From NCBI GenBank assembly GCA_051313645.2, contig JBNRSN020000029.1, positions 10,478,001-10,542,000 on the forward strand: DNA of 64,000 nucleotides, in the 5' to 3' direction. This stretch comes from Centroscyllium fabricii (Eukaryota). The notes under the pieces were generated by a model, which saw only the letters and a program-made list of their open reading frames with translations, did not search any database and was not told where the DNA came from. A program made the position numbers and the translations under genes. Numbering within the stretch: the stretch's first letter is position 1; every line of letters starts with the position of its first letter. Below are positions 1 through 23,637 of the stretch, piece by piece.

Positions 1-601
1 GCCGAGAGGGGGAAGACGTCGGCCTTGAGGAGAGATCTGGCCTTATCCGCGTACTGGGGGACCCATTGCGCGTAATAAGAAAAGAACCCCAGGCATCTCC
101 TCAGGTCTTTGGGGTTGTGAGGTAAGGGCAGCTCTTGTAAGGGGCGCATATGCTGTGGATCGGGGCTGAGGACCCCGTTTTCCACCACGTATCTGAGGAT
201 AGCGAGCCGGTCCGTACTAAAGACACACTTGTCTTTATTGTATGTTGGGTCCAGCCGTTTCGCCATGTGCAGGAATTTGGCGAGGTTGGCATCGTGGTCC
301 TGCTGGTCATGGCCGCAGATGGTCACGTTGTCCAGGTAGGGGAAAGTGGCCTGCAACCCGTTCTGGTCAACCATGCGGTCCATCTCCTTCTGGAACACTG
401 ATCAGACCAAAGGGGACCTGGAGGAAGTGGTGGAGCCTGCTGTTCGCCTCGAAGGCGGTGTATTGGCGGTCGAATTTCCGGATGGGGAGTTGGTGATACG
501 CCGACTTGAGGTCGATTGTGGAAAAGACGTTGTACTGGGCGATCTGGTTCACCTTGTCCGAGATGCGGGGGAGGGGGGAGGCGTCGAGCCCGGTGTAGTG
601 G
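1..601 (-). pseudogene. Degenerate RT region of Gypsy element B (continues left of the window)
   Basis: Minus-strand peptides [31 protein letters not shown] and [13 protein letters not shown], with frameshifts and deletions. Joins 7788-9830 at INR|YTGLD across the element A insertion. Confidence 0.9.
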
Positions 602-892
602 TGACATATCGTCAATACCTTAGATTAAAAGAGTCGACGAGTAGTTACCGAAACTAAAGGCTTTTAATCGCTAAAGAACGGAGCTACCCTCCGGAACGAA
701 CTTCTGTACAGGAATCAGGAGCCTCGGTCAGTTTCCACCTATAAAGGGGCCTCACCTGGGGGAGGAGTTAGAGGTGTGGCTGACCTGGCTCCCAACAGTA
801 TTACACAGTATACAGGGCTGTGCCTTACATCCGCACAGCCCATTATTGGTACAATAATAACAGTGGTAAACAACTATACAAGGGTTACCACA
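602..892 (-). repeat. 3' LTR of element A
   Basis: Near-identical to 7509-7787 (about 4 substitutions and a 12-nt indel). TG...CA ends. Preceded on the - strand by the PPT TTCAAGAAGGGGTGAA. Confidence 0.95.
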
Positions 893-893
893 T

Positions 894-3751
894 TCACCCC
901 TTCTTGAAAATTTTAAGTCGGGGTGGGGGGGGGGGTAAATGTGCCGAACAGTTCATGATCAGTCTGTCCGGCGGTCGTGTCTGCCTGGAGGACCGCCGGC
1001 GTTCCGGTGTTGGTGGTGGTGCCTCCTGGTTCGCACCACTTGCATCTGCCGGTGGTGACTGCTGATCGGGTGCCGTGGCTTCTGGTGGCGATGGATCCGG
1101 CTGGTCCCCGTCGTCCGGGTCGTAGTTCTGTACTGGGAAGCTCAGGAGCCATCGTGTGTCTGGTGTGTTCACTGGATACTGCAGCTGAGTGGCCTGCTGG
1201 CCGGCCAGGGCCTCTGCGGTGGTGCTTCCTGCGGTAGCCAGGTCCCTGATGGACACGGTGTCCTCACGCCCGTCCGGGAACTGCACGAATGCGTAGTGGG
1301 GGTTCGCGTGTAGGAGCTGTACCTTGTCCACCAGGGGGTCCGTCTTGTGGCTCCGGACATGTTTTCTAAGCCAAACCGGCCCCGGAGTCGTCAGCCATGG
1401 AGGAAGGGCTATCCCCGAAGTCGATTTCCTAGGGAAGGAGAAAATCAGATCGTGCGGGGTGGCGTTAGTATCAGTACACATTAGAGAGCATATAGAGTGC
1501 AGTGCGTCTGGGAGGACTGCCTGCCAATGGGACACTGGAAGGCCTCTGGACTTGAGAGCCAGGGTGACCGCCTTCCAAATGATCCCATTCTCCCTTTCTA
1601 CCTGGCCGTTCTCCCGGGGGTTATAACTGGTCATTCTGCTCGTGGCAACCCCTTTCTGGAGCAGAAACTGGTGCAGTTCATCGCTCATGAACGATGACCC
1701 CCGGTCGCTATGGATGTAGCTGGGAAGACCGAAAATGGCGAACAGCGTGGTGAAGTGTTTTATCACCGTTGTGCTCGTCATATCTGCGCAGGGGAAGGCG
1801 AAGGGGAAGCGGGAGAACTCATCCACTACCGTGAGGAAGTATGAGTTGCGGTCGGTGGAAGGGAGGGGGCCTTTGAAGTCCACGCTGAGACGTTCAAAGG
1901 GGCGGGTGGCCTTAATGAGGTGCGCCGTGTCTGGCCGGAAAAAGTGGGGTTTGCACTCGGCGCAGACAGGGCACTCTCGGGTCATAGCCTTGATCTCCGT
2001 GATGGAGTAGGGGAGGCTACGGGACTTAACGAAGTGGGCGAGTCTGGTGACACCCGGGTGGCAAAGGCGGTCATGGAGGTCCTTCAGCCGGTCGAGCTGG
2101 GCACTGGCGCACGTTCCCCTGGACAGTGCGTCCGGGGGTTCATTAAGTTTACCTGGTCGGTAAAGAATGTCATACTCGTCAGTCGAGAGTTCGATCCGCC
2201 ACCGCAGGATCTTATCATTCTTGATTTTACCCCGTTGTTTATTATTAAACATAAACGCCACCGACCGTTGGTCGGTGAGCAGGGTAAAACGCTTACCGGC
2301 CAGGTAATGATGCCAGTAGCGCACGGCCTCCACGATGGCCTGGGCCTCCTTTTCCACTGCGGAGTGGCGAGTTTCGGGTCCCTGTAAGGTGCGGGAGAAA
2401 AACGCTACGGGCCTGCCTGCCTGATTCAGGGTGGCAGCAAGGGCGAAGTCTGAAGCGTCACTCTCCACCTGGAAAGGGATGGATTCATCAACAGCGAGCA
2501 TGGTCGCCTTGATAATATCTTCCTTTATCCTTGCGAATGCCGTTTGGGCTTCTACAGAAAGGGGGAAGACGGCAGCCTTGAGGAGTGGTCTAGCCTTATC
2601 TGCGAACTGTGGGACCCATTGTGCATAATAGGAGAAAAATCCTAGGCATCTCCTCAAGGCTTTGGGGTTGTGAGGTAGGGGCAGTTCTTGCAGGGGTCGC
2701 ATATGCTGTGGGTCGGGGCCGAGGACCCCGTTCTCCACCACGTATCCGAGGATGGCGAGCCGGTCTGTATTAAAGACACATTTGTCCTTGTTGTACGTAA
2801 GGTCCAGCTTGTCCGCCGTGGCGAGGAATTTGGCCAGATTGGCATCGTGGTCCTGCTGGTCGTGGCCGCAGATGGTCACGTTGTCCAGGTAAGGGAAAGT
2901 GGCCTGCAAGTCATTTTGGTCAACCATACGGTCCATCTCCTGTTGGAACACTGACACTCCGTTGGTCACGCCAAAGGGGACCTGGAGGAAGTGGTAGAGC
3001 CGACCGTTCGCCTCGAAGGCGGTGTAGGGGCGGTCGGCTTTCCGAATCGGGAGCTGATGATACGCCGATTTAAGGTCGATCGTGGAGAACACCTTGTACT
3101 GGGCGATCTGATTGACCATTTCCGAGATGCGGGGAAGGGGGTAGGCGTCGAGCCCGGTGTAGCGGTTGATAGTCTGGCTGTAATCAATAACCAGCCGCTG
3201 TTTTTCACCAGACTTCACCACTACAACTTGGGCGCACCAGGGGCTGGTGCTGGCATCAATTATCCCGTCCTTCAGCATCTGCCCGACCTCCGACCTGATA
3301 AACGTGCGATCCCCCTCACTGTACCGCCGACTCTTAGTAGCAATGGGTTTGCACTTCGGATCGAGGTTGGCGAACAGTGAGGGGGGGTCGATTTTCAGGG
3401 TAGAGAGGCCGCAGGCCGGGCTCCGCTTTGGGAAGGGATTGTCCCGGCTACTGACGGTGAAGGGGGGCAAGGTCCCGCCGAACTCCATTGTCACGCTCTT
3501 GAGGTGGCACTGGAAATCCAAACCTAGTAAGGCTGGGGCACACAACTGCTGGAGGGTATACAATTTAAAATTACGGTACACGCGCCCCTTGACGGTGAGC
3601 GTGACGGAGCAGTAGCCGGTGACGTCCGCGGTGTGGGACTGTGAAGCTAGGGAGACTTGGTAGTTAGTGGGCAGGACCTGCAGTCCGCAGCGCTGCACTG
3701 TATCGGGGTGCACAAAACTCTCAGTGCTCCCTGTGTCAAAAAGGCAGTTAA
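894..3751 (-). CDS. Pol of element A: aspartic protease, RT, RNase H, integrase
   Basis: LFDTG protease motif, DLKSAYHQ and PFG RT motifs, YLDN, RNase H ESDASD/EKEA/TDQ/DALSR, HHCC zinc finger, DFKGP-SDRG-VEREN DDE core. Open for about 940 codons. No env or chromodomain seen. Confidence 0.92.
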
Positions 3752-6153
3752 TCTAGGAAGGTCAAAGAGTGCAGATGGAGAGATTTTCTTACAATGCGTG
3801 CAGGAAGGTTTCCTGACACAATACGTGGAGGAACCAACAAGGGGGGGGGCAATGTTGGACCTGGTTCTGGGAAATGAACCAGGCCAAGTGGTAGAACTGG
3901 GGGTAAGGGAGCACTTTGGGGACAGTGACCACAACTCGGTGACGTTCACAATAGTAATGGAGAAGGATAGGAGCATGAGGCAGGGTAAGGTATACAGCTG
4001 GGGGAGGGGAAATTTCGACAGGGTTAGGCACGATTTAGCTAACACCAATTGGGAACGGGAACTTGCTGGGAGAGGAACGGAAGAAAAATGGAGAGTGTTC
4101 AGGGAGCAAATTATGAAAGCCCTGGATAAGCATGTCCCGAGTAGGATGGGAAACAAGGGAAAGATGAGAGAACCGTGGATCACGAAAGAGGTAGAACAAT
4201 TAGTAAAGAAGAAGAAGGAGGCATATGATAGAATGAGAAAGCAGAGTACAGCAGGGGCGGGAAGGGAGTACAAAGAAGCAAGGAAAAAACTGAAGAATGG
4301 GCTAAGGAAGGCAAAGGGAGGGCATGAGAAGGCATTAGCGGGAAGGAGAAAGGAGAACCCTAAGGCTTTCTATGCTTACGTAAGAAATAAAAGGATGACT
4401 AGGATAAGAGTAGGACCGATCAAAGACGGCAAGGGAGAAATGTGCATGGAGTCAGAGGAAATTGGGGAAGCACTAAATGAATATTTTGCGTCCGTGTTCA
4501 CAAGGGAGAGGGAACTAAAAGTAGAGGAGGAGTTCAAGATACAAGGGGAAAGGATGGGGGAAGTAAATATTCAGAGGGGGGAGGTATTAGATATTTTGGA
4601 GAAACTGAAGGTAGACAAATCTCCTGGGCCGGACGGGATATATCCAAGGATTCTCTGGGAAGCGAGGAACGAAATCGCAGAGCCACTGACCTCTATCGTT
4701 AATTCCTCGCTATCCTCGGGGATAGTCCCTGAGGACTGGAGAGAGGCGAATGTGGTTCCCATATTTAAAAAGGGGAGCAGGGACGTGCCAGGGAACTACA
4801 GACCAGTCAGCCTTACCTCGGTGGTCGGAAAGGTGATGGAAAGGGTCCTGAGGGACAGGATCTACGACCATCTGGAATGGGGCAAATTAATCAGGAGCAG
4901 TCAGCACGGATTCGTTAAGGGCAAATCGTGCCTGACCAACCTGATAGAATTCTTTGAAGAGGTGACCAAGTGTGTGGACGAGGGAAAGGCGGTTGATGTC
5001 ATATATATGGACTTCAGCAAGGCGTTCGACAAGGTCCCGCACGGTCGACTCATGAAGAAAGTAAGGAGTTGCGGGGTAAACAACGAAGTGGTGGGATGGA
5101 TTGAGGACTGGCTGGCTCAGAGGAAGCAGAGGGTAGTGGTAGAGGGCCAATACTCGGGTTGGAGACCGGTCACCAGTGGGGTACCACAGGGGTCGGTGTT
5201 GGGGCCACTACTATTTGTAATCTTTATCAATGACTTGGAGGAGGGGACTGAGGGGTGGGTCAGCAAATTTGCGGATGACACAAAGATTGGGGGAGTAGTG
5301 GATGAGGAGGAAGGAAGTAGAAAGATTCAGAGGGATATAGATAGGATGCAGAGCTGAGCTGGAGTTCAACACGGGGAAATGCGAGGTGATGCACTTCGGT
5401 AGGGCAAATAGGAAGAGGGAATATAGGGTCAACGGCAGGGTCCTGAGTGAAGCAGAGGAGCAAAGGGATCTGGGAGTGTATGTACACAGATCATTGAAGG
5501 CTGCCACCCAGGTGGACAAGGCAGTAAAAAAGGCCTATGGTGTATTGGCCTTCATCAACAGGGGAATAGAGTTTAAGAACCGAGAGGTCATGCTGCAGCT
5601 GTACAGGTCACTGGTGAGACCACACTTGGAGTACTGTGTACAGTTCTGGGCACCGTACTACAGGAGGGATGTGGAGGCGTTGGAGAGGGTGCAGAGGAGA
5701 TTCACCAGGATGCTGCCGGGAATGGGGGGAAAGTCGTACGAGGAGAGGTTGAGGGAGCTGGGAGTCTTCTCCCTGGAACGGAGAAGGAAGAGGGGGGACT
5801 TAATAGAGATGTTTAAAATGATGAAGGGGATCGATAGAGTAAACGTGCAGAGACTGTTTCCCCGGGTGGGAAGAACGACAACAAGAGGGCACGAGCACAA
5901 GATTCAAGGAGGAAGATTCAGAAGGGATGGCAGGGGCAAGTTCTTTACGCAGAGAGTGGTCGGGGAATGGAATAGGCTACCATCTGAAATAGTGGATGTG
6001 GACAGTCTGGGTGCTTTTAAAAGGATGATAGACAGGTACATGGAGGGGAAGGAAGAGTAGGGGGGACAGAAAAAATCAGAGACGGACTAAGCGCGGCACT
6101 ACATTGAGGGCCCAAGGGCCTGTACAGTGCTGTATGTTCTATGTTCTATGTTC
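3752..6153 (+). mobile_element. 5'-truncated CR1 LINE (ORF2 with one frameshift near 5357)
   Basis: Endonuclease C-terminus (LDLVL, SDHN), RT motifs [25 protein letters not shown], and CR1 C-terminal RGH...FFTQRVV..WN. (ATGTTCT)3 tail. TTAA duplicated at 3748-3751 and 6154-6157. Confidence 0.93.
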
Positions 6154-7484
6154 TTAACAGTGTAGTCATTAATCAAAATAGGCATTATAGAGTTAGACAG
6201 GGTATGTGGCCTGTCCTGGTTCACTCTGATTCTGGCTGCCGCAGCCGTGCGTTTCTGTGTGCGTGGGGCCCTTGCTGGTCGGGGCTGTACACAAGATGGC
6301 GGCGCCCCTGGCTCGCACATGGTGGGGCCCTGAATATAAGATGGCGGCGCCCCTGGCCCGCACATGGAGGGGCCCTGGATACAAAATGGCGTCGCCGAGA
6401 GGTCGCACATGGTGGGCCGCTGTGAGCGCGCTGGCGGCGCCCGTGATTCGCACGCAGCGGACCGCGGTGATCGGGTTGGCGGTGCCCGTGATTCGCACGC
6501 AGCGGGCCGCGGTGGTCGGGTTGGCGGTGCCCGTGATTCGCACGCAGCCGGCCGTGTTGGGGGGTCGCGCTTGGCCGGCCTTTGCCGCATCGGGGTGGGA
6601 GATGGGGGCGCTTGTTGTCTACCCCCGGAGCGTCGCTGTATCGCGCTGCTATTGCAGCTTACCTGGTGTCTGTCGGTGCGCTCAGAGGCTGCACTGTTGT
6701 ACCTTTGGTTAGACGCTGCTGGAGCTGATCTGCAGGCTTTAGCTTAATGGCCTTTCTTAGCGCATCTCTCACAAGTCGCTGTCCTGGCTGGGCATTTCGC
6801 TCGTGGGTGCAGTCCCTGGTTGCAGAAGTAGCAGCGCTTATCTTTTGTGACTGTCGCAGCCATCGTGGGGGTCTCGGCCCGTTGTGGTGCTGCCCAGGCC
6901 TGGGCCTGTTGTGGTGCGGCCCATATGTTGTAGGCTTGCGGGTTAGTGCCGCTGTACGCCTGTAACTTGCTTCGGGCCCCCTCTACTGATTTGGCTATCT
7001 TAGTCGCCTCCTCAAGGGCTAGATTGTCTTTCTCAAGTAGCCGCTGGCGGGCTTCCACACACCTTAGTCCCGTAACGTGAGCGTCCCGAACGAGGAGTTC
7101 TGCCTCCTCTTCAGCTGTTATGGCTTTGCAGCCACAGACCCGTACCAGGGCCAGGAGCGCTTGCTCGAACTGCTCATTCGACTCACCCGGTAGCTGAGAT
7201 CTGGTCGCAAGCACATGTCGGGCATAGACCGAATGGACCGGGCGCTCGTCGCATTTTCGTAGTTGTAGTACGGCCGCTGCGTAGGTTGAGGCGTTCCTGA
7301 TGAGGGAGAATACCCTGCTTGAGATCCTCGACCGGAGGACCTGCAATTTGTTCCTGTCCGATGTAGCCTTGGCGGCGTCCATGTAGGCCTCCAGGAGGCC
7401 GAACCAGTGTTCGAACGTGGTAGCAGCGGCAGGGTCCTGGGGACTGATGTCCAGCTTCTCAGGTTTAACTGCGCTGCTCTCCAT
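6154..7484 (-). pseudogene. Gag (two zinc knuckles) and Pro-rich spacer of element A, same frame as pol
   Basis: MESSAVKPEKLD... with CYFCNQGLHPRAKC and CERCAKKGH*AKAC (premature TAA at 6744-6746). The frame continues to INDYTVN, which joins CLFDTG across the CR1. Confidence 0.9.
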
Positions 7485-7508
7485 TTTAAAATATTTAGCG
7501 ATTAAAAT

Positions 7509-7787
7509 TGACGTATAGATTAAAAGAGTCGACGAGTAGTTACCGAAACTAAAGGCTTTTAATCGCTAAAGAACGGAGCTACCCTCCGGAACGAACTTCT
7601 GTACAGGAATGAGGAGCCTCGGTCAGTTTCCACCTATAAAGGGGCCTCACCTGGGGGAGGAGTTAGAGGTGTGGCTGACCTGGCTCCCAACAGTATTACA
7701 CAGTATACAGGGCTGTGCCTTACATCAGCACAGCCCATTATTGGTACAATAATAACAGTGGTAAACAACTATTCAAGGGTTACCACA
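7509..7787 (-). repeat. 5' LTR of element A
   Basis: Copy of 602-892, lying 24 nt upstream of the gag ATG at 7484. Confidence 0.95.
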
Positions 7788-8519
7788 AGCGGTTAATCGT
7801 CTGGCTATAGTCAATGACCATGCGCAGTTTCTCGCCCATCTTAACCACTACGACCTGGGCCCGCCAGGGGCTGGTGCTGGCCTCAATGATCCCTTCTTTC
7901 AGCATACGCTCGACCTCCGACCTGATGAACGCCCGGTCCCCTGCACTGTAACGGCGACTTTTGGTAGCAATGGGCTTGCATTTGGGGTCGAGATTGGCGA
8001 ACAGCGAGGGGGGGTCGACCTTTAATGTGGACAGGCCGCAAGTCGAGCTCTGCGTTAATTTGGGATTGTCCCGGCTACTTACGGTGAGTGGGGCCAGGGT
8101 TCCACCAAAATCGATCGTCACGCTCTTCAGGTGACACTGGAAATCCAGTCCCAATAATACTGGGGCGCACAGCTTTTGGAGTACGTACAACTTAAAGTTG
8201 CGGTAAATGTGATCCCTGATCATGAGCGTGACGCTGCAGTAGCCGGTGACGTCCGCCGTGTGGGACTTTGAGGCAAGGGAGATTTGGTAGTGCGTGGACT
8301 GGGTCTGCAGTGCGTAGCGCCGCACTGTGTCGGGGTGCATAAAGCTCTCTGTGCTACCGGTGTCGAACAGGCAGTTAGTGACATGCCCATCCACCTTTAT
8401 CCCCATCATGGAGTTGGGCAAGGTGTGCGGCCTAGCCTGATTGATGGTGGCTGAGGCCGAAGTGTATGTGTGTGTGTGGGGGCCCTCCGCTAGCTGGGGC
8501 CCCGGCCGGGGCGGTTGGT

Positions 8520-8880
8520 AAGATGGCCGTTCGGAAGATGGCGGCGCTGGCGATTCGCACGTGTCCGGCTGCTGTGGACACGATGGCGGCGCCCGTGGTT
8601 CGCACGCGGCCGACCGCTGTGGACAAGATGGCGGTGCCCGTGGTTCGCACGCGGCCGACCGCTGTGGACAAGATGGCGGCGCCCGTGGTTCACACATGGC
8701 CGACCGCTATGGGCAAGATGGCAGCGCCCGTGGTTCGCACGCAGCCGACCGCTGTGGATAAGATGGCAGCGCCCTTGGTTCGCACGCGGCCGACCGCTGT
8801 GGACAAGATGGCCGCGCCCGTGGTTTACATGCGGCCGACCGCTGTGGGCAAGATGGCGGCGCCGGGGTTCGCACATGTCC
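8520..8880 (-). repeat. 45-bp coding tandem repeat (about 8 copies, CEPRAPPSCPQRSAA) between gag and protease of B
   Basis: (A)AGATGGC recurs at 45-bp spacing (about 8537, 8582, 8627, 8671, 8716, 8761, 8806, 8851). Confidence 0.9.
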
Positions 8881-9853
8881 GGTCACGGTCGCATTTGGGA
8901 TGGCGGCGCCTGTGCCGCGCATGCGGCCGGCCTCCGCCGTACCGTTAAAGGGGATGGAGGCGCCCGCGATTTACCCCCGGCTGACAGCTGCTGGGTCGCG
9001 CTGCAACACCGTACCTGTAGCCACGGAGTGGCATCACTGTTCTCACAGACCGCGCTGTTGGGTCTGGAGGGGGAGGCCGGGCTAGATTTGCACGCCTTAG
9101 CATAGTGCCCCTTCTTCGCGCACCGCGCGCAGGTCGCATTCTCCGCGGGGCACTGCACCCGCGGGTGCTTTCTTTGGCCGCAGAAGTAGCATCTGTGCCC
9201 CACCAGTGCCATCGCAGTCGCCGCTGCCGTCGTGGGGGCCTCCTCCTGTCTCTGTGTCACCCAGGGGTCAGGGGTACTCGCGTGGGAGTCGTGATCCCTG
9301 TACGCGTCCATCTTCCGAAACACTCCGTCCACCACATTAGAAAGTGTTACCGCGGACTCGAGCGACAGTGTCTCCTGCTCCAGCAGCCGCTGGCGGGCCT
9401 AGCTGGATCTGTGTCCTGCAACAGAGGCATCGCGGATTAGAAGGTTCACCTCTTCCTCCGCTGTCCTTGCCTTGCAGTCGCAGGCCCGTGCGAGGGCTTG
9501 GAGCACCAGCAGGAATTGTTCATTGGACTCACTGGTTCATTGTCATCTGGTGGACAGAACATGCCTGGTGTAGACCGAGTGGGCCGGGCGCATGTAGCTG
9601 TCCTTCAGTTTCTTGACCGCTTCCTCGTAAGTCTTGAGGCCGCGGATAAAGTAGTACACCCGGCCGCTGATCCGTGACGAGAGTACCTGGAGTTTGTCCT
9701 CATCACTCGTCGCCTTTACGGCCTTCATGTAGGCCTCGACCAGGCCAAACCAGTGTTCAATATCGTTAGCAGCATTGGGAGCCTGAGGATTTATATCAAG
9801 GCGATCCGGTCTCATTGCATTGCTCTCCATGTTTAAAATTTAGTTAATAAAAT

Positions 9854-10090
9854 TGACGTATCGTCAATTAATCACACAAAGACGAGTAGTTACCTAAACT
9901 ATAGGGTTTTATTAACTAAGAATGGAGCTGGTCTCCTGATGAGGTCAAGGTGAAGAATGAGTGGGGGCAGGTCAGCAACCACCTATGTACTCCGACCTGA
10001 GGGGAGGAGTTAGGGGTGTGGCTGACCTGGCCTACAATACTGCACAGGTAAACTGGCATCTATGTACAGTGGTTATACACGATTACCACA
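9854..10090 (-). repeat. 5' LTR of element B
   Basis: TGTGGTAATC...TACGTCA ends. Shares the GGAGGAGTTAG.GGTGTGGCTGACCTG block and the U5 block with LTR A. 23 nt upstream of the gag ATG at 9830. Confidence 0.88.
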
Positions 10091-10488: not shown

Positions 10489-10674
10489 CCAATCAGGCCA
10501 CTGAAGGCCGTGGTCTACACTTCCCAGCCGGTCCTGACCAGTCAGGAGATTCAGACCATCTTCTTCAAGCTGCCCGAGCTCTACGACATTCACAAGGACT
10601 TCTGCTCCAAGCTGAAGGAGAGAATTGAGGGTGGAGACCCCCTCCAGCCCGTAGGAGACCTCTTTCAGCAACTG
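10489..10674 (+). CDS. Internal coding exon of a BCR/ABR-family RhoGEF/GAP gene (DH domain)
   Basis: Polypyrimidine tract plus CAG acceptor, GTAAGG donor, 186 bp, phase 0. [38 protein letters not shown]...VGDLFQQL resembles BCR [38 protein letters not shown]...VGDLFQKL. Confidence 0.9.
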
Positions 10675-10847: not shown

Positions 10848-11987
10848 TGTGGTTTTACCTGTGTTGTATTGTGTGTACCGCACCCTTTTCCCATTCTGTG
10901 TATTGGCTCCGCCCCTGTCTGTAGTGGCTCCACCCCTGTCTGTAGTGGCTCCGCCCCTGTCTGTATTGGCTCCGCCCCTGTCTGTATTGGCTCCGCCCCT
11001 GTCTGTATTGGCTCCACCCCTGTCTGTATTGGCTCCGCCCCTGTCTGTATTGGTTCCACCCCTGTCTGTATTGGCTTGGCCCCTGTCTGTATTGGTTCCA
11101 CCCCTGTCTGTATTGGTTCCACCCCTGTCTGTATTGGCTTGGCCCCTGTCTGTATTGGCTCCGCCCCTGTCTGTATTGGTTCCACCCCTGTCTGTATTGG
11201 CTCCGCCCCTGTCTGTATTGGTTCCACCCCTGTCTGTATTGGTTCCACCCATGTCTGTATTGGTTCCACCCCTGTCTGTATTGGTTCCACCCCTGTCTGT
11301 ATTGGCTTGGCCCCTGTCTGTATTGGCTTGGCCCCTGTCTGTATTGGTTCCACCCCTGTCTGTATTGGTTCCACCCCTGTCTGTATTGGCTTGGCCCCTG
11401 TCTGTATTGGTTCCACCCCTGTCTGTATTGGTTCCACCCCTGTCTGTATTGGCTTGGCCCCTGTCTGTATTGGTTCCACCCCTGTCTGTATTGGTTCCAC
11501 CCCTGTCTGTATTGGCTTGGCCCCTGTCTGTATTGGTTCCACCCCTGTCTGTATTGGTTCCACCCCTGTCTGTATTGGCTTGGCCCCTGTCTGTATTGGT
11601 TCCACCCCTGTCTGTATTGGTTCCACCCCTGTCTGTATTGGCTCGGCCCCTGTCTGTATTGGCTCCGCCCCTGTCTGTATTGGTTCCACCCCTGTCTGTA
11701 TTGGCTTGGCCCCTGTCTGTATTGGTTCCACCCCTGTCTGTATTGGCTCGGCCCCTGTCTGTATTGGCTTGGCCCCTGTCTGTATTGGTTCCACCCCTGT
11801 CTGTATTGGCTCCGCCCCTGTCTGTATTGGCTCCGCCCCTGTCGTTTGTCACATAAAGGTCTCAGGAGCTGCATGAGACATTCTGCCAGAGAAACCCGAT
11901 GGGGAATGATGTGCAATGTTCTTAGCGATTAAAAGCCTACAGTTAAATCCTTTAACTTGTCATCTTTGAGTTGTTGATGGCACATCA
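10848..11987 (+). mobile_element. Solo LTR of the same Gypsy lineage with a minisatellite-expanded U3
   Basis: Starts TGTGGTT. Has CATAAAGGT (compare TATAAAGGT in LTR C) and CTTAGCGATTAAAAGCCTACAGTT, and ends TTGATGGCACATCA like the other LTRs. No clean TSD. Confidence 0.72.
10899..11843. repeat. 21-bp minisatellite, 45 copies (TGTATTGGYTCCRCCCCTGTC and variants)
   Basis: 945 bp of strict 21-bp periodicity. Main variants are CTCCGCCCC, TTCCACCCC and CTTGGCCCC. Confidence 0.97.
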
Positions 11988-12237: not shown

Positions 12238-12537
12238 TGTGGTAACCGTTGTATATACTGTAATTCCCACCATAATATTGTAACCAATATTATATGTATG
12301 TATAGCGGTCGGGTGCATGATGCAACTGTCCTGTGTTGCGACACTGTCGCGGGGTCAGGTCAGCCACACCTCTAACTCCTCCCCTCAGGTGAGTGCCTTA
12401 TAGGTGGGGACTGACCTGCCCCCATTCATTCTGTACCTGATGTTCGATCGGAGCGTAGCTCCATTGTAAGCTAATAAAAGCCTATAGTTAAGGTAACTAC
12501 TCGCCTTTAGTTTTATTAGATTATTGACGATACGTCA
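12238..12537 (+). mobile_element. Solo LTR (300 bp) related to LTRs A and B
   Basis: TGTGGTAACC...GATACGTCA, AATAAAAGCC signal, perfect 5-bp TSD GCTTG (12233-12237 and 12538-12542). Confidence 0.93.
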
Positions 12538-12832
12538 GCTTGGTTCATTCCGTGGCTGTGATTTGTTGATGTTTGATTAATATAATAGTTGAGACAATTG
12601 GGTGAAAGTGTGACACACACCTTACACATGCCATACTTTCAGGTGTGACACTTTAAGCTGTGACATGTTTAGCTGTTACTTATTACTTGTGACACTTTCA
12701 AGTGTGTTCAGGCATGACCAATTCGATTGTCTTGCTGTGACATTTTAAAGTGTGACAAATTAAGCGTGACAGTCTCATGTGTGACTCATTACACTCTGAC
12801 ATTGTCAGGGGGGCGATATTTTTTTTTAAATG

Positions 12833-13623: not shown

Positions 13624-13731
13624 GTGAACCAGTTTGGGGTTTATCGAGCGTTTATTAACAATTACCCGCTGGCAGTGGAGACGGCAGAAAAATGTGCTCA
13701 AAGCAAAGATCAGTTTAAACAAATAGCTCAG
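13624..13731 (+). CDS. Next coding exon of the BCR/ABR-family gene
   Basis: TTACAG acceptor, CAG|GTACAA donor, 108 bp, phase 0. VNQFGVYRAFINNYPLAVETAEKCAQSKDQFKQIAQ resembles BCR/ABR ASQLGVYRAFVDNY..A.E.AEKC.Q...QF..ISE and directly continues the previous exon. Confidence 0.9.
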
Positions 13732-13812
13732 GTACAATCTAAGACACTGATGGTGTGTCCTCTGCCTGCGATCTCTCTGTATCCTCTATCTGTGTACTCT
13801 GTCTGTATCCTC

Positions 13813-14110
13813 TGTGGTAAACCACTGTATATATGTATATAATCACCTGCATTGTGTATAACCTCTGCTGTACTGTACATAGCCCTTTCCACTGTGTATA
13901 GTTCACCTGTGTGTAGCTTGTCCGGGCATGCCCATGCTGACCCCGCCTGCGGCTCCTCCTCCTCGGACCCAGGTATAAAGGTAACTGCTTTCCCTCCCCC
14001 ATTCATTCTGGGATCGGTCGACTAGCATGGGTATGCTCATGTCTTAGTTAATAAAAGCCTACAGTTCACTACTCAACTTCTAGTCTTTTGAAGTTATTGA
14101 TTAGGCATCA
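13813..14110 (+). repeat. 5' LTR of element C (TATAAA about 13973, AATAAA 14050)
   Basis: TGTGGTAAACC...GCATCA. Differs from the 3' LTR by about 2 substitutions and a 9-nt indel. Confidence 0.95.
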
Positions 14111-14133
14111 ATTTTATTAACTAAGTTTTCATC

Positions 14134-17100
14134 ATGGAGCAAATGCTGAAACCCGCGACGTTGTAACTAGATCCCCAAGCGCCAGGTGCCTCTAACGTTT
14201 TTACGCACTGGTTCTCTTGCCTTGAGGCGTACCTTGAAGCCTCCGCTGCGATCATCCAGACAGACAGGGACAAACTGCGCCTCCTCAACGCCCAAGTGGG
14301 CCCTCAGGTGTACTCAATCATCGCGGACGCTACGTCCTACAACGAGGCGGTCAGAACTCTGAAGAGCCAGTATACCCGGACACCTAACGCGGTCTACGCC
14401 AGACACCTCCTGGCCACCCGAAAGCAGCAACCCGGGGAATCGAACGAGGAGTTCCTGCGAGCACTGAGGGTCCTCTGCTGGGCCTGCAATTGTGAAGCGC
14501 AATCAGCGGCCGTGCACGCCGAGACCCTCATCAGAGACGCCTACGTCGCCGGCCTCAGGTCAGACTACATCAGGCAGAGACTGTTAGAGAAGGATGGCCT
14601 GGACCTGCAGGTGCCGGTACAGCTTTCGAGCTCGCTGGACCTGGCTTCCCATAATATGGCCGCCTATAACCCTGACCACGTGGGCACATCGCTGCTGCCG
14701 CCATCTTGGACACAGCCGGCCGCACCGCGACTTACGGATGAGCTGACCGCGGCAACAATCTCGAAGGGCCCGAAATGCTACTTCTGCGGCCAGGCCCAGC
14801 ACCCCAGACGGAATTGCCCGGCAAGGGACGCGACCTGCTCCAAGTGCGGGAAGAAGGGCCAATACGCCAAGGTATGCAGAGCAGCAGCGCGATTGACCCC
14901 CAAACCCGGCAGCGCCGCGTGCGGCCCGTGGGGGCCGCCATCTTGGACACAGCCGGTCACGCCATCTTCAGCACAGCCCGCCGCGTGGGAGCCCGTGCCA
15001 TCTTGGACACAGCCAGCCGTGCCATCTTCAACACAGCCCGCCGCGTGGGGGCAGTGGGGGCCGCCATCTTGGGACCAGGCCCCAGACCCCTCCACCAACC
15101 CGACGGACCCGACTCTGGCCTCAATCACCCTCGACCAAGACAAGAGGCAACCGCTCCACAAATCGATGATGTCGGTGCAGGTGAATGGCCGCACTACAGA
15201 CTGCCTTTTCGACAGCGGGAGTACGGCGAGCTTTATACATCCAGACACGGTAAAGCGCTTCTGCCTAACAGCAACACCGGAAAGCCAAAAAATTTCAATG
15301 GCTTCGAGGTCCGAATCAGCGGACGTCTGCGGTCGCTGCGTAGTGACCCTGACAGTGCGGTGTGTAAACTTTGAACATTTTAAACTATTCGTGCTGCCGC
15401 AGCTCTGCGCTCCCCTGCTGCTGGGCCTCGATTTCCAGTGTCACCTCCAGAGCGTGACAATGGTGTACGGTGGGCCCCTTCCCCCGCTCACGATGAGCAA
15501 TCAGCGCTCCCCACAGTGCCCTCAGCGCACTATCTGTGGCCTCTCGACCCTTAAGATCGCCCCTCCCTTACTCTTCGCCAACCTCACCCGTATCTGGATA
15601 ATGTCACCAAGAGTAGGCGCTACAGTACCGGGGACAGAGACTTTATCAAGTCGGAGGTAAAACGGCTTCTGAGGGAAGGGGTCATCGAGGCTAGTAATAG
15701 CCCCTAGAGAGCCCAGGTAGTGGTTGTAAAGACCAGAGCCAAGCGCCGAATGGTCATTGACTGCAGTCAGATCATTAATCGGTTTACGCAACTGGACGCG
15801 TATCCCCTCCCCCGCATAGCGGACATGGTGAACCAGATCGCGCAGTGCCGGGTCTTTTCGACCATCGATTTAAAATCTGCGTATCACCAGCTCCCCATCC
15901 GCCCAGAAGACCGCCACTATACTGCCTTCGAGGTAGACGGCCGCCTCTAACACTTCCTTCGGGTTCCCTTTGGTGTCACCAACGGGGTCTCGGTCTTCCA
16001 ACGGGAGATGGACCGAATGGTGGATCAGTACGGACTGCGGGCCACTTTCCCGTATCTGGATAATGTCACCATCTGCGGCCACGATCAGCAAGACCATGAC
16101 ACCAACCTCCAGAAATTTCTCCACACCGCCAAAACCCTGAACCTGACCTATAACACAGACAAATGTGTATTCAGGACAACCTGCCTCGCCATCCTCGGCT
16201 GTGTTGTGTAGAATGGGGTCATCGGTCCCGACCCGGACTGCATACGCCCCCTCCTGGAGCTTCCCCTCCCCCACTGCCTCAAGGCCCTGAAAAGGTGCCT
16301 GGGCTTCTTTTCTTATTATGCCCAGTGGGTCCCCAACTACGCGGACAAGGCCCGCCCACTCATTAAATCGACCTCTTTTCCCCTGTCGGCAGAGGCCCGC
16401 ATGGACTTCAACAGCATCAAACAGGACATCGCAAAGGCCACGATGCACGCGGTGGACGAATCCATCCTGTTCCAGGTGGAGAGCGATGCGTCCGACTTCG
16501 CCCTGGCCGCCACCCCTAACCAGGCGGGCAGACCCGTGGCCTTCTTCTCACGCACCCTCCAGGGCCCCGAAGCCCAACACTCTTCCGTTGAGAAGGAGGC
16601 CTAGGCCATTGTGGAAGCAGTGCGACACTGGAGGCACTACCTGGCCGGTAAACAATTTACCCTGCTGACTGACCAACGCTCAGTCGTGTTTATGTTCAAC
16701 AACAAACAGCGGGGCAAAATCAAGAACGACAAGATATTGAGGTGGAGAATCGAACTCTCTGCCTTCAATTATGATATCTTGTACCGGCCCGGGAAACTCA
16801 ATGAGCCCTCAGATGCCCTGTCCCGCGGTACATGTGCCAGTGCACAAGTAGACCGTCTCCAGACCCTGCACAACGACCTCTATCACCCGGGGGTCACCAG
16901 TTACTTTCATTTCATCAAGTCCCGCAACCTCCCTTACTCCATCGAGGAGGTCAGGACCATGACCAAGAACTGCCGGGTCTGTGCAGAGTGCAAGCCGCAC
17001 TTCTTTCGGCCGGACCGGGCACACCTTATAAAGGCCACCCGCCCTTTTGAGCGACTCAGCGTCGACTTCAAAGGGCCCCTCCCCTCCTCTAACCGCAACG

Positions 17101-17615
17101 TGTACTTCCTCAATGTTATTGACGAGTACTCGCATTTCCCCTTCGCTATCCCCTGCCCGGACATGACCTCCTCCACGGTCATTAGGGCACTGCACAGCAT
17201 CTTCTCTCTGTTTGGGTACCCCAGCTACATCCATAGCAACCGGGGCACCTCTTTAATGAGCGATGAGCTGCGTCAGTTTCTGCTCGCCAAGGGCATCGCC
17301 ACGAGCAGGACTACCAGCTATAACCCCCGGGGGAACGGACAGGTGGAGAGGGAGAATGCCACCGTCTGGAAGGCCACCCTATTAGCCCTGCGGTCTAAGG
17401 GCCTCCCAGTCTCCCGCTGGCAGGACGTCCTCCCCGAGGCGCTCCACTCCATTCGGTCACTTCCTTGTACGGCCACTAACGCCACCCCTCACGAACGACT
17501 CTTTGCCTTCCCCAGGAAGTCGGCTTCAGGGACCTCGCTGTCGTCATGGCTATCGTCCCCAGGACCCGTCCTGCTCCGGAAGCACGTGAATATCCATAAG
17601 TCGGATCCCCTGGTC
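14134..17615 (+). pseudogene. Gag-pol of element C with several stops and frameshifts
   Basis: ATG at 14134, CYFCGQAQHPRRNC knuckle, LFDSGS protease, [22 protein letters not shown] and DDE integrase motifs. Confidence 0.92.
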
Positions 17616-18030
17616 ATAGAGTCATAGAGTCATAGAAAATAGGTGCAGGAGAAGACCATTGGGTCCGTCGAGCCCGCACCGCCATTCAATACGTTCATGG
17701 CTGAACACAAGGACACAAGAACAGAAGACACAAGAACACAGGAACACAAGAACACAAGAACCCCATAAATAGGAGCAGGAGTAGGCCAATCGGCCCCCCA
17801 AGCCCGCCCCCTCACCCATCAAGATCATTGCTGATCCTACCCTAACCTTCGTACCACTAACACCCTTCTCCCACCCAAAGAACCGTGTGATCTCCTGGGA
17901 GAGGCGAAAAACCGGATAAAAACCCAGGTCCAATTTGGGAAAAAAATCCGGGAAATTCCTCTCCGACCCCAATCCAGGCGATCGAAACTTGTCCAGGAGA
18001 TCACTCAGGTCTTACTATACTAACCATAAC

Positions 18031-20981
18031 TCAGGTCCACTTCCCTGCCCGCTCCCCGTAACCCCTAATTCCCTTGTCAGCTAAAAAACAGTCGATTTCG
18101 GTTTTAAATTTATTTAATGTTCCCGCTTCCACAGCTCCCTGAGGCAGTGAATTCCACAGATTAACCACCCTCTGGGTGAAGAAGTTTCTCCTCATCTCAG
18201 TTTTAAAAGAACCCCCCCTTATTCTAAGACTATGCCCCCTAGTTCTAGTCTCCCCGATCATTGGAAACATCCTTGGCGCATCCACCCGATCAAGGCCCCT
18301 CACGATCTTATACGTTTCAATAAGATCGCCTCTCATTCTTCTGAACTCTAAAGAGTAGAGTCCCAACCTACTTAACCTTTCCTCATATGTCAACCCCCTC
18401 ATCGCTGGAATTAACCGTGTAAACCTTCTCTGCACTGCCTCCAGGGCAAGTACATCCTTTCTTAAGTATGGACACCAAAACTGCACACAATATTCCAAAT
18501 GCGGTCTCACCAATACTGTGTACAGCTGCAGCAAGACCTCCCTGCTTTTATACTCTATCCCCCTAGCAATAAAGGCTAAGACTCCATTGGCCTTCCTAAT
18601 CACTTGCTGCACCTGCATACTAACTTTTTGTGATTCATGCACTAATACCCCCAGGTCTCTTTGCGTTGTATTACAATGCAGCTCCTCCCCATTTAGAAAA
18701 TAACTTGCCCTATGATTTTTTTTTCCAAAGTGTATAACTTCACATTTATCAGTATTAAATTTCATCTGCCAAATTGCTGCCCAATCACCTAGCTTATCTA
18801 TATCCTTTTGCAGGCTTTTTCTGTCCTCCTCACTCCCTGCTTTTCCTCCCATTTTTGTGTCATCTGCAAACTTTGATATATTACACTTGGTCCCCTCCTC
18901 CAAATCATTTATATAGATTGTAAACAGCTGGGGTCCCAGCACCGACCCCTGCGGAACACCGCTAGTCACCGATTGCCATCCCGAGTATGAACCATTTATC
19001 CCAACTCTCTGCTTCCTGCTTGAAAGCCAATCCTCTACCCATGCTAATATATTTCCCCCAATCCCATAATTTTTTATTTTATGCAATAGTCTCTTATGTG
19101 GCACCTTGTCAAAAGCCTTTTGGAAGTCCAAGTATACCACATCCACCGGTTCCCCTTTATCCACCCGAGATGTTACTTCCTCAAAGAATTCGAGCAAATT
19201 AGTTAAACATGACTTCCCCTTCGTAAAACCATGCTGACTCTGTCCGATTAAGTCATGTTTATCCAAGTGCCCCGTCAGTGTTTCTTTAATAATGGTCTCT
19301 AACATTTTACCCACCACAGATGTTAGACTAACCGGTCTATAGTTACCAGCCTTCTGTCTACTTCCCTTTTTAAATATAGGTGTTACATTAGCCATTTTCC
19401 AATCCACCGGGACCCTTCCTGACTCCAGGGAGTTTTGGAAAATTATCACCAATGCATCCACAATCCCCACCGCTATTTCTCTCAAGACCCTAGGATGTAA
19501 TCCATCAGGCCCAGGGGATTTATCCGCCTTAAGTCCCATTAATTTACCTAATACCATCTCCTTAGTGATCTTAATAGTGTTTAGCTCCTCCATTCCTATA
19601 GCCCCCTGTTTATCCAGCGTTGGAATATTTTTAATGTCTTCTACGGTAAAGACTGATACAAAATATTCATTTAATGCTTTTGCCATCTCCATGTTCCCCA
19701 CCAACAACTTCCCAGTCTCACCCTCCAATGGACCAACATTCACCTTAGCCACCCTTTTTCTTTTAATATAACTATAAAAACTCTTGCTATTAGTTTTTAT
19801 GTTTTTCGCTAAGTTACTTTCATAATCTATTTTCCCCTTCTTAATTAATCTCTTTGTTATTTTTTGCTGACTTTTAAATGCTTCCCAGTCTTCTGTCTTC
19901 CCACTGTATCTGGCTACCTTATATGCCCTCGCCTTTAGCCGAATACTATCCTTTATTACTTTACTTAGCCATGGTTGGCTGCTCTTTCCATTACCCCTTT
20001 TTTTCTTCAGTGGAATGTATTTTTCTTGAAGGTTGTACACTAACTCCTTAAAAGTACGCCACTGCTCATGTACCGTCTTATTCTTTAGTCCGTTATCCAA
20101 TCTACTTTAATCAGTTCTGTTCTCATACCTTCATAGTCTCCCTTGTTTAGACTAAGTACCCTGGTTTGAGTTTCAAATTGCTCCCCCTCTAGTTGAATAT
20201 GGAATTCAACCATATTGTGGTCACTCGTTCCAAGAGGGTCCCTAACTATGACATTTTTAATTAATCCTGCTTCATTACACAGGACCAGATCCAAGATTGC
20301 CTCCCCCCTTGTCGGTTCAGTGACATACTGTTCTAAGAACCCATCCCTAATACACTCTATAAACTGTTCCTCTAGTCTACCCTGCCCAGTCTGATTTGTC
20401 CAGTTGATATGAAAGTTAAAGTCCCCCATGATTACAGCAGTTCCCTTATTACATGCTTCAACTATTTGCTGATTTATGTTCTGACCAACAGAGTCACAAC
20501 TATTGGGAGGTCTATAGATTACACCCACTAGTGTTTTTTTCCCCTTATTATTCTCTATCTGTACCCAAGCTGTTTCACTATCCTGATCATTTGACCCAAT
20601 ATCCTTCCTTTCTATTGCAGTTATTCCATCCTTTATTAAAAAGGCCACCCCACCTCCTTTTCTTTCCTGTCTGTCTTTTCTGATTGTCAAGTAACCCTCT
20701 ATGTTTAACTCCCAGTCCTGATCACCTTGCAGCCATGTTTCTGTAATGGCCACAATATCATACCTATACGTGCTTAATTGTACCGTCAATTCATCTATCT
20801 TATTGCGAATACCACGTGCATTCAGATAAAGCACTTTCACATGTGTTTTACTACCCTTTATTTCTGTTTTTACTCCTTTTACGACTCTACCTTTATCTTC
20901 ATACATTCTGTATCCTCCTAGCACACTTTGATTTTCAGATTCCCCACTGAAACCCTGCTCTATTTCCTTTACCCCTGTCAT
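18031..20981 (-). CDS. CR1 ORF2 (APE endonuclease and RT), one frameshift near 20100
   Basis: YLNARG, ITETW, YRPP, MGDFN, SDHN endonuclease motifs. [27 protein letters not shown] motifs. Confidence 0.92.
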
Positions 20982-21013
20982 TATTATCTCTCTTGAATCC
21001 TCCCCCCCGCTAC

Positions 21014-21967
21014 TTAGTTTAAAGACCTCTCTATTGCCCTAGTTATATGATTTGCCAGGACCCTAGTCCCAGCACGGTTCAGGTGAAGTCCGTCCCAACG
21101 GAACAGCTCCCCCCTGTCCCAGTACTGATGCCAGTGTCCCAAGAAACCAAACCCATTTTTCCCACACCAGTCTTTGAGCCACGCATTTAGCTCTCTAATT
21201 TTATTTACTCTCGCCAATTTAGCCCGTGGCTCAGGTAGTAATCCAGAGATTATTACCCTGGAGGTTCTGTTTTTTAATTTGTTCCCTAACAGCTCAAACT
21301 CCCTTAACAGAACCTCTTTCCTCGTCCTTTCTATGTCGTTGGTACCAACATGGACCACGACCACTGGATCCGCCCCCTCCCTCTGCAAATTTCTCTCCAG
21401 CCCAGCGGAGATGTCCTGAACCCTAGCACCGGGCAGGCAACACAGCCTTCGGGACTCCTTCTGTCGGCTACAGAGAACCCTATCTATCCCCCTAATAATA
21501 CTATCCCCTACCACTACAACATTTCCTCTAACTCCTCCCTCTTGAATGGCCCCCTGATCCACGGTGCTGTGGCCAGGTTGCTCATCCGTCCCACAGCCCC
21601 CGTTCCTGTCCTCACAGCGAGTAAGAGCCTCGATCTCGTTCGGCAAGTACAAGGGCTGTGGCTCCTGCCGCACCTCCTCCTGGATCCCCATACCTGCCTC
21701 GCTCATGGACACACCTTCCTGTCCTTGCTCACTAACTTCAGAATTATTTAAACTTGTTGGTGTGTCCATCTCCCGGACCAAAATATCCAGGTAATTCTCC
21801 CCCTCCCTGATGTCCCGCAGCGTATGAAGCTGGGTCTCCAGCTCATCAATACGGAGCTGGAGTTCCTCTAGCCTCAAACACTTACCGCAGGTGTAGGGAT
21901 CGACGACATCAACGGTGTGTACGTATTCCCACATCTGGCAGTATTGGCACATCACCTGCTTGCCCAT
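21014..21967 (-). CDS. CR1 ORF1: zinc finger/leucine zipper plus SGNH esterase domain
   Basis: CQYC...CGKC followed by a heptad Leu repeat. GDSIIRG, PGA, HVGTND and DGLHLN SGNH blocks. Intact 317 aa. Confidence 0.92.
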   Translation of the reverse strand: MGKQVMCQYCQMWEYVHTVDVVDPYTCGKCLRLEELQLRIDELETQLHTLRDIREGENYLDILVREMDTPTSLNNSEVSEQGQEGVSMSEAGMGIQEEVRQEPQPLYLPNEIEALTRCEDRNGGCGTDEQPGHSTVDQGAIQEGGVRGNVVVVGDSIIRGIDRVLCSRQKESRRLCCLPGARVQDISAGLERNLQREGADPVVVVHVGTNDIERTRKEVLLREFELLGNKLKNRTSRVIISGLLPEPRAKLARVNKIRELNAWLKDWCGKNGFGFLGHWHQYWDRGELFRWDGLHLNRAGTRVLANHITRAIERSLN

Positions 21968-22319
21968 CTTATATAATTAATTATTAGTTCCTAGTTAAGA
22001 ATCCTCTACCCGGATTAACTATATTGAAAACACACCCCTATTTATTTAAGCTTACCACTTATAAAACGGGGAAGTACTCACCCCAGCAGTGAATCACCTA
22101 CTAGCTTGGCTGGCTGGTGGTAAATAAGTCTGCTCAGCCTGTCCGGTCCACTGCTCCTCCGCGATGCGTGGCAAACCTGTGAACTTGTGAACAAGGGAAG
22201 GAAAGGAAGGAAAGGAAGAACAGACAGAAACACAGCAGACACCAGAAGACTCCCACTTGCCCTAACTCCCAGTGTCCAAACTCCCGTCTGCACTCTACGC
22301 CGCCGCACTCCGCGCAGAT

Positions 22320-22887
22320 GCACTAAGTCCTGCCCCTTTTATATCGGATTTTAAAATCTTATTTAGCTTTTTATTTTTAATTTCTTTTTCCCCCAAACTC
22401 TCTTATATACAGAAATGAATGCACTTCAATGCCTTTCCCAAAAAGTTCACTTTATTTCAGGAAGTACTCACTCTCACTCAGCCACCGGAGTGAATCTTTC
22501 CACGTGCAGGCGCACTAAGTCCCGCCCCTTTTATATCGGATTTTAAAATCTTATTTAGCTTTTTATTTTTAATTTCTTTTTCCCCCAAACTCTCTTATAT
22601 ACAGAAATAAATGCACTTCAATGCCTTTCCCAAAAAGTTCACTTTATTTCAGGAGGTACTCACTCTCACTCAGCCACCGGAGTGAATCTTTCCACGCGCA
22701 GGCGCACTAAGTCCCGCCCCTTTTATATCGGATTTTAAAATCTTATTTAGCTTTTTATTTTTAATTTCTTTTTCCCCCAAACTCTCTTATATACAGAAAT
22801 AAATGCACTTCAATGCCTTTCCCAAAAAGTTCACTTTATTTCAGGAAGTACTCACTCTCACTCAGCCACCGGAGTGAATCTTTCCAC
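22320..22887 (-). promoter_or_regulatory. 192-bp tandem monomers (x3) at the CR1 5' end, putative promoter
   Basis: GCACTAAGTCC recurs at 22320, 22512 and 22704. On the - strand each unit has TATAAAA-GGGGCGGGAC and an NRF1-like GCGCCTGCGC. Confidence 0.75.
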
Positions 22888-22888
22888 T

Positions 22889-23302
22889 GTCGAATGGGTC
22901 CGTCTCCTCCACGCCAACCCTCAGTACGCCTACGTGGCGTACCCTGATGGGTGGGAGGACACAGTGTCCATCAAGGATCTGGCACCCTCGGGTGCCCCCG
23001 AGACCACCATTACCCACCAGCCCGCATCCCTCCCCCCCACCGCTACCCTTGGGGCACCAGCACCACGGTGCGTCATACCCCTCGAGGCACCAGCACCACG
23101 GTACGTCCACCCGGCACCTGCAGGCAGCACGGTATGGCCCCCAAATATGTCGCTACGCACCCGCTGGCCGGACGACAAAGGGGAGAGCGCGCCAGTGACC
23201 GTACGGGACTCTGCGTCGGAACAAGCACCGCCGCCGACTCCCCCGCCAACTCTACGTCGGTCTTCAAGGCAGACCAAACCGCCCGAGAGACTGAACCTCT
23301 GA
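22889..23302 (+). pseudogene. Integrase C-terminal part of element C
   Basis: VRLLHANPQYAYVAYPDGWEDTVSIKDLAP...LRRSSRQTKPPERLNL* matches the C-terminus of element A pol. Confidence 0.9.
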
Positions 23303-23348
23303 TGGTTGCCCTAATTTACCCCGCAAGGGGTTTTAAGCAAGGGGTGAA

Positions 23349-23637
23349 TGTGGTAAACCACTGTATATATGTATATAATCACCTGCATTGTGTATAACCC
23401 CTGCTGTGCTGTACATAGCCCTTTCCACTGTGTATAGTTCACCTGTGTGTAGCTTGTCCGGGCATGCCCATGCTGACCCCGCCTGCGGCTCCTCCTCCTC
23501 GGACCCAGGTATAAAGGTAACTGCTTTCCCTCCCCCATTCATTCTGGGATCGGTCGACTAGCATGGGTATGCTCATGTCTTAGTTAATAAAAGCCTACAG
23601 TTCACTACTCAACTTCTAGTCTTTTGAAGTTGCATCA
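23349..23637 (+). repeat. 3' LTR of element C
   Basis: Copy of 13813-14110 lacking ATTGATTAG in U5. Confidence 0.95.

Follow-up and report, generated by a model that had tools for sequence, protein, structure and literature searches.

A natural YLDN motif in the probably functional reverse transcriptase of an abundant Ty3/Gypsy family in Centroscyllium fabricii

Retrotransposons in the window

The window, a 64,000-nucleotide stretch of the Centroscyllium fabricii genome, contains three long terminal repeat (LTR) retrotransposons, here called A, B and C (Table 1). Element A sits inside the reverse transcriptase (RT) of the outer element B, the RT of which resumes at 601, and four of the five bases of the target duplication of A are alike. 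Element C is flanked by a 5-bp target duplication (TCCTC), and its leader at 14112-14125 is complementary to 14043-14056. The RNase H of element A retains four acidic residues. The initial annotation of the window described near-identical LTR pairs; this description is accurate for A (267 of 270 aligned positions identical) and C (99.3% identical over 283 nt), but not for the outer element B, the LTRs of which are 94.5% identical and lack a matching target duplication. All three copies are broken: in A, gag is interrupted by a stop and the protease by a CR1 piece; B carries a frameshift and is divided by the insertion of A; and the gag–pol region of C has both stops and a CR1 insertion, about 5 kb long. 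Evidence of activity therefore comes from the family and not from these copies. In all three elements, the stretch from the Gag zinc knuckles to the protease contains in-frame tandem repeats of 45 and 60 bp (6291-6554, 8535-8874 and 14937-15049).

Table 1 Features of elements A, B and C, in positions of the window
Feature	Positions	Strand	Remarks
3′ LTR of element A	602-892	-	
Polypurine tract preceding 3′ LTR of A	893-905	-	Same tract in family copies
Stop-free frame of element A	897-3752	-	952 codons; protease end, RT, RNase H, integrase; Ty3/Gypsy order
YLDN of element A	2880-2891	-	Codons TAC CTG GAC AAC
Motif A aspartate of element A RT (STIDLKSAY)	3075-3077	-	Retained; D in 98% of N-type relatives
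CR1-type LINE piece in A protease	3755-6150 (ends approximate)	+	Canonical FADD RT
gag of element A	6102-7484	-	CCHC knuckle; one in-frame stop near 6745
14-nt leader of A, primer-binding-site position	7494-7507	-	One base past LTR; no TGG
LTR partner of A leader	7557-7570	-	Complementary to 7494-7507; ends in ATTAAA signal plus one A
5′ LTR of element A	7509-7787	-	TG...CA
Element B, 5′ half	7788-10090	-	5′ LTR 9854-10090, same-type leader, gag, protease, RT start
YLDN of element B	327-338	-	Codons TAC CTG GAC AAC
Element C	13813-23637	+	5′ LTR 13813-14110; 3′ LTR 23349-23637
YLDN of element C	16053-16064	+	Codons TAT CTG GAT AAT

The YLDN motif and its abundance

In all three elements, RT motif C reads YLDN and not YxDD, as the initial annotation had reported. 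A six-frame scan recovers the motif at the positions given in Table 1, its 13-residue context is the same in all three RT frames, and a degenerate 32-nt pattern of the motif has three matches in the window and none in each of 100 shuffles. Over 361 nt around the motif, DNA identity is 86% between A and B, 73% between A and C, and 74% between B and C. The asparagine aligns with the second aspartate of the YLDD of Ty3 (4OL8, E 4e-43), numbered D214 in PMC5371799; the motif A aspartate and the first aspartate of motif C are intact in the same RT. The predicted model has an ordinary Ty3-like RT–RNase H fold (pLDDT 89.7; best match, 4OL8), and the other catalytic residues, including the acidic residues of RNase H, are 98–100% conserved.

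Across the C. fabricii genome, the pattern FPYLDN[VI]TICG has 209,678 matches and FPYLDD[VI]TICG has 283; N thus makes up 99.87% of YLDN and YLDD matches combined, and YLDN is the consensus of the family. Together with the selection on RT described below, these counts bear out the earlier proposal that YLDN is a lineage trait and not decay. As controls, we counted two variants that arise by the same kind of single A-to-G change as YLDD, namely YLDS (438 matches) and YLGN (788 matches), both of which are commoner than YLDD; YLGN lacks an essential aspartate and is catalytically dead. Mutation rates vary by context, so the counts do not prove selection against D. YLDD copies are clearly not amplified, and there is no amplified YLDD subfamily. 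In a tree of 99 loci (1 of 100 was dropped because it lacks the motif), the first 30 of the 283 YLDD loci are spread among 69 YLDN loci, with 20 changes of state. Because YLDD is rarer than YLDS and YLGN and scattered on the tree, the YLDD copies appear to be point mutants and not helpers, although a sub-lineage of a few dozen copies could be present among the other 253 YLDD matches. A stop-free core is kept in 20 of the 30 YLDD loci and in 27 of 40 YLDN loci (broken in 10 and 13, respectively). A looser, sister-motif pattern has 385 genome matches, with N in all 100 of the matches listed. At about 4.8 kb each, the roughly 210,000 motif matches would amount to up to about 1 Gb of the 7.2-Gb assembly, if most are full length.

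Selection and recent activity

In 28 YLDN copies whose core is free of stops, dN/dS is 0.07 for the 103 pairs at dS ≥ 0.8 (saturated pairs dropped) and 0.45 for the 10 pairs at dS < 0.1, and the asparagine codon is AAC in 19 copies and AAT in 9. The RT frame of the family is under purifying selection between subfamilies. The 150 best genome matches to the RT core are 98–100% identical. We also inspected 40 YLDN loci, chosen by position among the first 100 matches listed: an LTR pair is present in 29 (median identity, 97.2%; 17 at ≥97%), an exact 5-bp target duplication flanks 18 of these 29, and a stop-free frame of over 1,400 codons is kept in 2 of the 40. This profile is what autonomous, recently active elements look like. 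Given purifying selection on RT and young LTR pairs, the YLDN enzyme very likely works, and the sequence comparisons make it highly probable that the RT of this Ty3/Gypsy family is functional with two aspartates kept. The naturally working two-aspartate RT put forward in the initial annotation is thus supported as likely by the fixation of YLDN, the low dN/dS and the young LTRs.

Alternatively, the YLDN RTs might be dead or weak and the copies mobilised in trans by the rare YLDD members or by the RT of another element. Possible helpers exist, in that the genome holds the 283 YLDD matches, a different Gypsy element, with a TGG primer site, is present at one locus (L113) and CR1 RTs with FADD lie in the window; in addition, yeast D-to-N mutants do not transpose. 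However, the YLDD copies are too rare relative to the controls, and too scattered over subfamilies, to suggest such a role, and a passenger RT would not keep a dN/dS of 0.07 and all of its other catalytic residues across a dS of about 2. Mobilisation only in trans, which the initial annotation had named as a possible objection, is not borne out, and we consider it highly improbable.

It might also be supposed that the aspartate is restored after transcription or translation, by A-to-I editing of AAC or by deamidation of asparagine, and that the working enzyme is YLDD. One A-to-I edit does make AAC an aspartate codon under the genetic code, yet reverse transcription of an edited RNA would yield YLDD DNA, and 99.87% of the matches are N. 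In contigs of four runs from other organisms (two of them guessed to be RNA; contigs drop rare variants), no variant of at least 1% is listed at the first two bases of the asparagine codon, and wobble sites vary. Asparagine before valine or isoleucine deamidates slowly. Restoration of the aspartate seems to us scarcely credible.

Aspartate and asparagine among relatives

Of 947 homologues, the best 120 divide into 99 with YxDN and 21 with xxDD. Among homologues with a named source, the top ones come from sharks and rays, at 74–78% identity. Within these 120, N occurs in all 12 source-named shark and ray proteins and also in named coral, anemone and mussel proteins, and D occurs in named damselfly, psyllid and whipworm proteins. 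A set of 80 metagenome loci, many of them from a few assemblies, comprises 50 with xxDN, 25 with xxDD and 5 with other motifs. When 149 of 150 representatives at 50% clustering are ordered by identity to the query, N is found in 19 of 35 at ≥50% and 13 of 49 at 37–50%, and in none of the 65 below 37%, all of which are xxDD. A scan of viral contigs returned no relatives, and the ESM Atlas matched only generic RT clusters.

The initial annotation had proposed that the motif be mapped onto an RT phylogeny. In the resulting tree, which has 206 rows and a root placed on 25 of the 61 distant rows, D is basal across animal relatives, and at least 19 changes of state are needed for the 204 rows that were scored. 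A single N clade is rejected (p-AU 1.6e-6) for 62 rows that were hand-picked after the first tree, which makes this not a blind test. Multi-member D groups are nested among N rows with good support (P0031 with P0075; P0083, P0105, P0107 and P0120) and so have the appearance of whole lineages that returned to D, as opposed to isolated mutants. Every one of the 13 rows in the shark/ray-type clade has N.

The search for compensating residues, also proposed at the outset, yielded no strict partner: among the 15 most N-enriched columns (178 rows), none of those listed tracks N and D across 10 independent pairs on well-supported branches. The best of the listed columns (for example, 105, 158 and 165 of the 429-amino-acid query) typically go with N in 2–4 of the 10 pairs and are mostly uninformative. 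Many positions are common to N and D members and unlike the distant rows, including R54, Q56, S73, an insertion at T75, and V147, which replaces the motif B proline (numbering of the same query). From the alignment, these are candidates for a permissive background.

A self-complementary leader at the primer-site position

No TGG follows the 5′ LTR; an AT-rich, self-complementary leader is found there instead. In 41 of 43 own-genome YLDN elements, a leader of 10–15 nt pairs with an LTR segment that ends 44–61 nt upstream, usually at a poly(A) hexamer, and in 39 of these 41 the leader starts exactly one base after CA; the same leader is present in 12 of 15 metagenome elements, 11 of them N-type (LTR ends were refined by searching for CA ahead of an A/T run, a step biased towards this leader, and 5 of 58 elements without such an end were dropped). 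The pairing score is reached by at most 8 of 100 shuffles, and both sides of the pairing change together between subfamilies. As read from the sequence, the paired segment lies about 40 nt after a TATA/Inr-like site. A leader match was found at 4 of 16 loci in the D group and at 11 of 25 in the N group, against 1 of 28 in the control, many of the loci being fragments.

When the leader RNA of element A is folded, a 14-bp helix forms, but over the full 135 nt the structure does not outperform shuffles (z -0.44); the case for the helix is therefore one of register and covariation. A register this constant suggests a primer site and hence priming independent of tRNA. Judged from its position and pairing, the leader probably serves such priming and/or hides the 5′ poly(A) signal. 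The window contains no tRNA gene. Ty3 primes on tRNA; by contrast, the clade studied here is without a TGG primer site. Self-priming chromoviruses of the Tf1/sushi type use no tRNA: their primer site pairs with RNA derived from the element's own LTR, and the Tf1-type primer consists of the initial bases of the transcript, which RNase H releases. The primer site here is likewise complementary to the element's own RNA. Unlike in Tf1/sushi, however, the paired segment in the present clade ends at an A-run, usually the poly(A) hexamer, and does not lie at the very 5′ end; a domain search found no chromodomain in the YLDN family. The pairing may represent a mode of self-priming that has not been described, and in our view it deserves no less attention than the motif; a search of the self-priming literature found no title naming this clade.

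The clade-wide leader is found in the window at 7494-7570, 9840-9919 and 14043-14125, and also in loci L061-L120 and L126-L188. In leader-bearing elements, the gag ATG is mostly 16–35 nt after the LTR. A YLDN RT region at L113 is flanked by another Gypsy element, whose LTRs are 98% identical and whose primer site is a canonical TGG; the two are probably nested.

The initial annotation suggested that the asparagine may be co-adapted with this unusual priming structure. The prevalence of the leader in own-genome YLDN elements and in N-type metagenome elements fits that idea, and every N-type RT that we saw lies inside the leader-bearing clade, the 65 representatives below 37% identity all being xxDD; the leader could thus be a permissive precondition. 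Nevertheless, when the leader is mapped together with the D/N state, it is found with YLDD as well as with YLDN: three YLDD elements (L142, L159 and L163) have the same leader in the same register, as does L185, which reads YLDS but has the motif context of YLDD relatives. The leader thus has no need of asparagine. At least 19 switches between D and N are counted on the tree, and nematode BEL/Pao elements reached YVDN separately. Co-adaptation in the sense first suggested is not supported by these observations, and we regard it as unlikely.

Comparison with known elements

The order protease–RT–RNase H–integrase in Pol, an RT closest to Ty3 among solved structures, TG...CA LTRs, a polypurine tract and a short target duplication all agree with Ty3/Gypsy. 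The family departs from that group in lacking the YxDD motif, which basal clade members have, and the TGG tRNA primer site, which is usual but not universal. By size alone, there is some likeness to Cigr-1, which reportedly has a 245-bp LTR and a 3,630-bp open reading frame: the invertebrate relatives are 3.9–4.4 kb in length, with one frame of about 1,200 codons and short LTRs. The Cigr-1 clade of Ty3/Gypsy is described from Ciona, molluscs and annelids (PMC6238403, PMC8556966), and the available portions of these two papers give no motif or primer site for it. The CsRn1 clade, including PwRn1, has a tRNA-Trp primer site, a CHCC Gag motif and a 4-bp target duplication (PMC2582038); on each of these three features, identity with PwRn1/CsRn1 is ruled out. 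The available portions of PMC13524379, PMC2774666 and PMC3601003 contain nothing on the present clade.

Membership of BEL/Pao was also considered and rejected, as Gag has one or two CCHC knuckles and not the triple Cys-His arrangement (PMC554778), and Pfam gives RVT_1, RT_RNaseH, rve and gag-asp_proteas, with no Pao-named family. BEL/Pao does, however, provide a precedent that the initial annotation overlooked: a natural YxDN RT is already in print, YVDN being a known family trait of nematode BEL/Pao elements (Belpaoviridae), including Cer7-Cer12 and Atlas virus (PMC554778, PMC9094657), the activity of which was still to be tested as of 2005 (PMC554778). In both groups, a natural change from aspartate to asparagine occurs at the same position of motif C in intact elements. 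The YLDN family differs in belonging to Ty3/Gypsy, in having no env that we could see and in occurring in a vertebrate genome, where it numbers about 210,000 copies, and its clade has both D and N among close relatives. Our literature search, which left most subscription papers outside its reach, found no report of a natural YxDN motif for Ty3/Gypsy.

The mutants of Ty1 and Ty3 cited in the initial annotation are described there correctly. Ty1 D211N polymerises with a 223-fold lower kpol and does not transpose, and it is rescued to 5–10% by RNase H suppressors (PMC2148107); Ty3 D214N is active with low processivity, and the change is lethal for transposition (PMC5371799). The YLDN RT shares the fold and the aligned residue with these enzymes, and polymerase activity survives asparagine in the yeast mutants. 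Yet those mutants fail to transpose, whereas the YLDN family has amplified massively with asparagine, so the tolerance of asparagine here needs an explanation.

A model for an RT with two aspartates

We propose that the family represents an autonomous Ty3/Gypsy lineage with an RT that would work with asparagine at the position of the third catalytic aspartate. The two retained aspartates are predicted to hold the metal ions, and the third residue may only tune rate, processivity and pyrophosphate release, as for Ty1 D211N and Ty3 D214N. A clade-wide protein background would make D and N interchangeable among invertebrate relatives, perhaps helped by the very short genome (4–4.8 kb), and the shark/ray branch would have kept N throughout. 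The role of the clade-wide leader would not depend on asparagine.

A bolder version can be entertained only tentatively, and we think it somewhat more apt to be wrong than right. In this version, the third carboxylate would be fully dispensable in the RT of an old animal Ty3/Gypsy clade, with the asparagine form made as efficient as canonical RTs by clade-wide changes at the dNTP site (for example, W-R-A-Q, a YSQT insertion and valine for the motif B proline); priming would proceed without tRNA, from the element's own RNA cut at the poly(A) signal; and the asparagine form would then have been fixed in sharks and rays, reaching, in a single genome, more than 200,000 copies and as much as about 1 Gb.

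Teaching presents YxDD as invariant, and pipelines rely on it to separate intact from dead RTs; the YLDN family would therefore be scored as defective despite its great abundance. The counts and their controls provide strong population-genetic evidence, drawn from sequence, that a natural YxDN RT can be active. Sister lineages with D and N constitute natural, unaltered enzyme pairs that bear on the role of the third aspartate and on why Ty1 and Ty3 cannot spare it. The surprise is limited by precedent, in nematode BEL/Pao elements and in the yeast mutants. Some viral RNA polymerases also carry a natural asparagine at this position (GDN and ADN).

Surroundings of the elements

An exon of a host gene like BCR lies at 10498-10614 (E 2e-13 to 5N6R), and by eye the region at about 13625-13730 looks like the next BCR-like exon; the elements seem to be in or near the introns of this gene. 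A 21-bp minisatellite of 45 copies occupies 10899-11843, and about 12250-12540 looks, by eye, like a solo LTR of the YLDN family. Inside element C, at about 17620-22890 on the minus strand, is a near-full-length CR1-type LINE with a GDSL-esterase ORF1; the 5′ end of this LINE bears three tandem repeats of 192 bp. From about 23.5 kb, a satellite of 11–13-bp units is present in about 2,500 registered copies, with repeat-like frames to the end of the window (about 23520-64000). Element C is at the edge of this satellite, and similar units are found 5′ of it as well (13772-13815).
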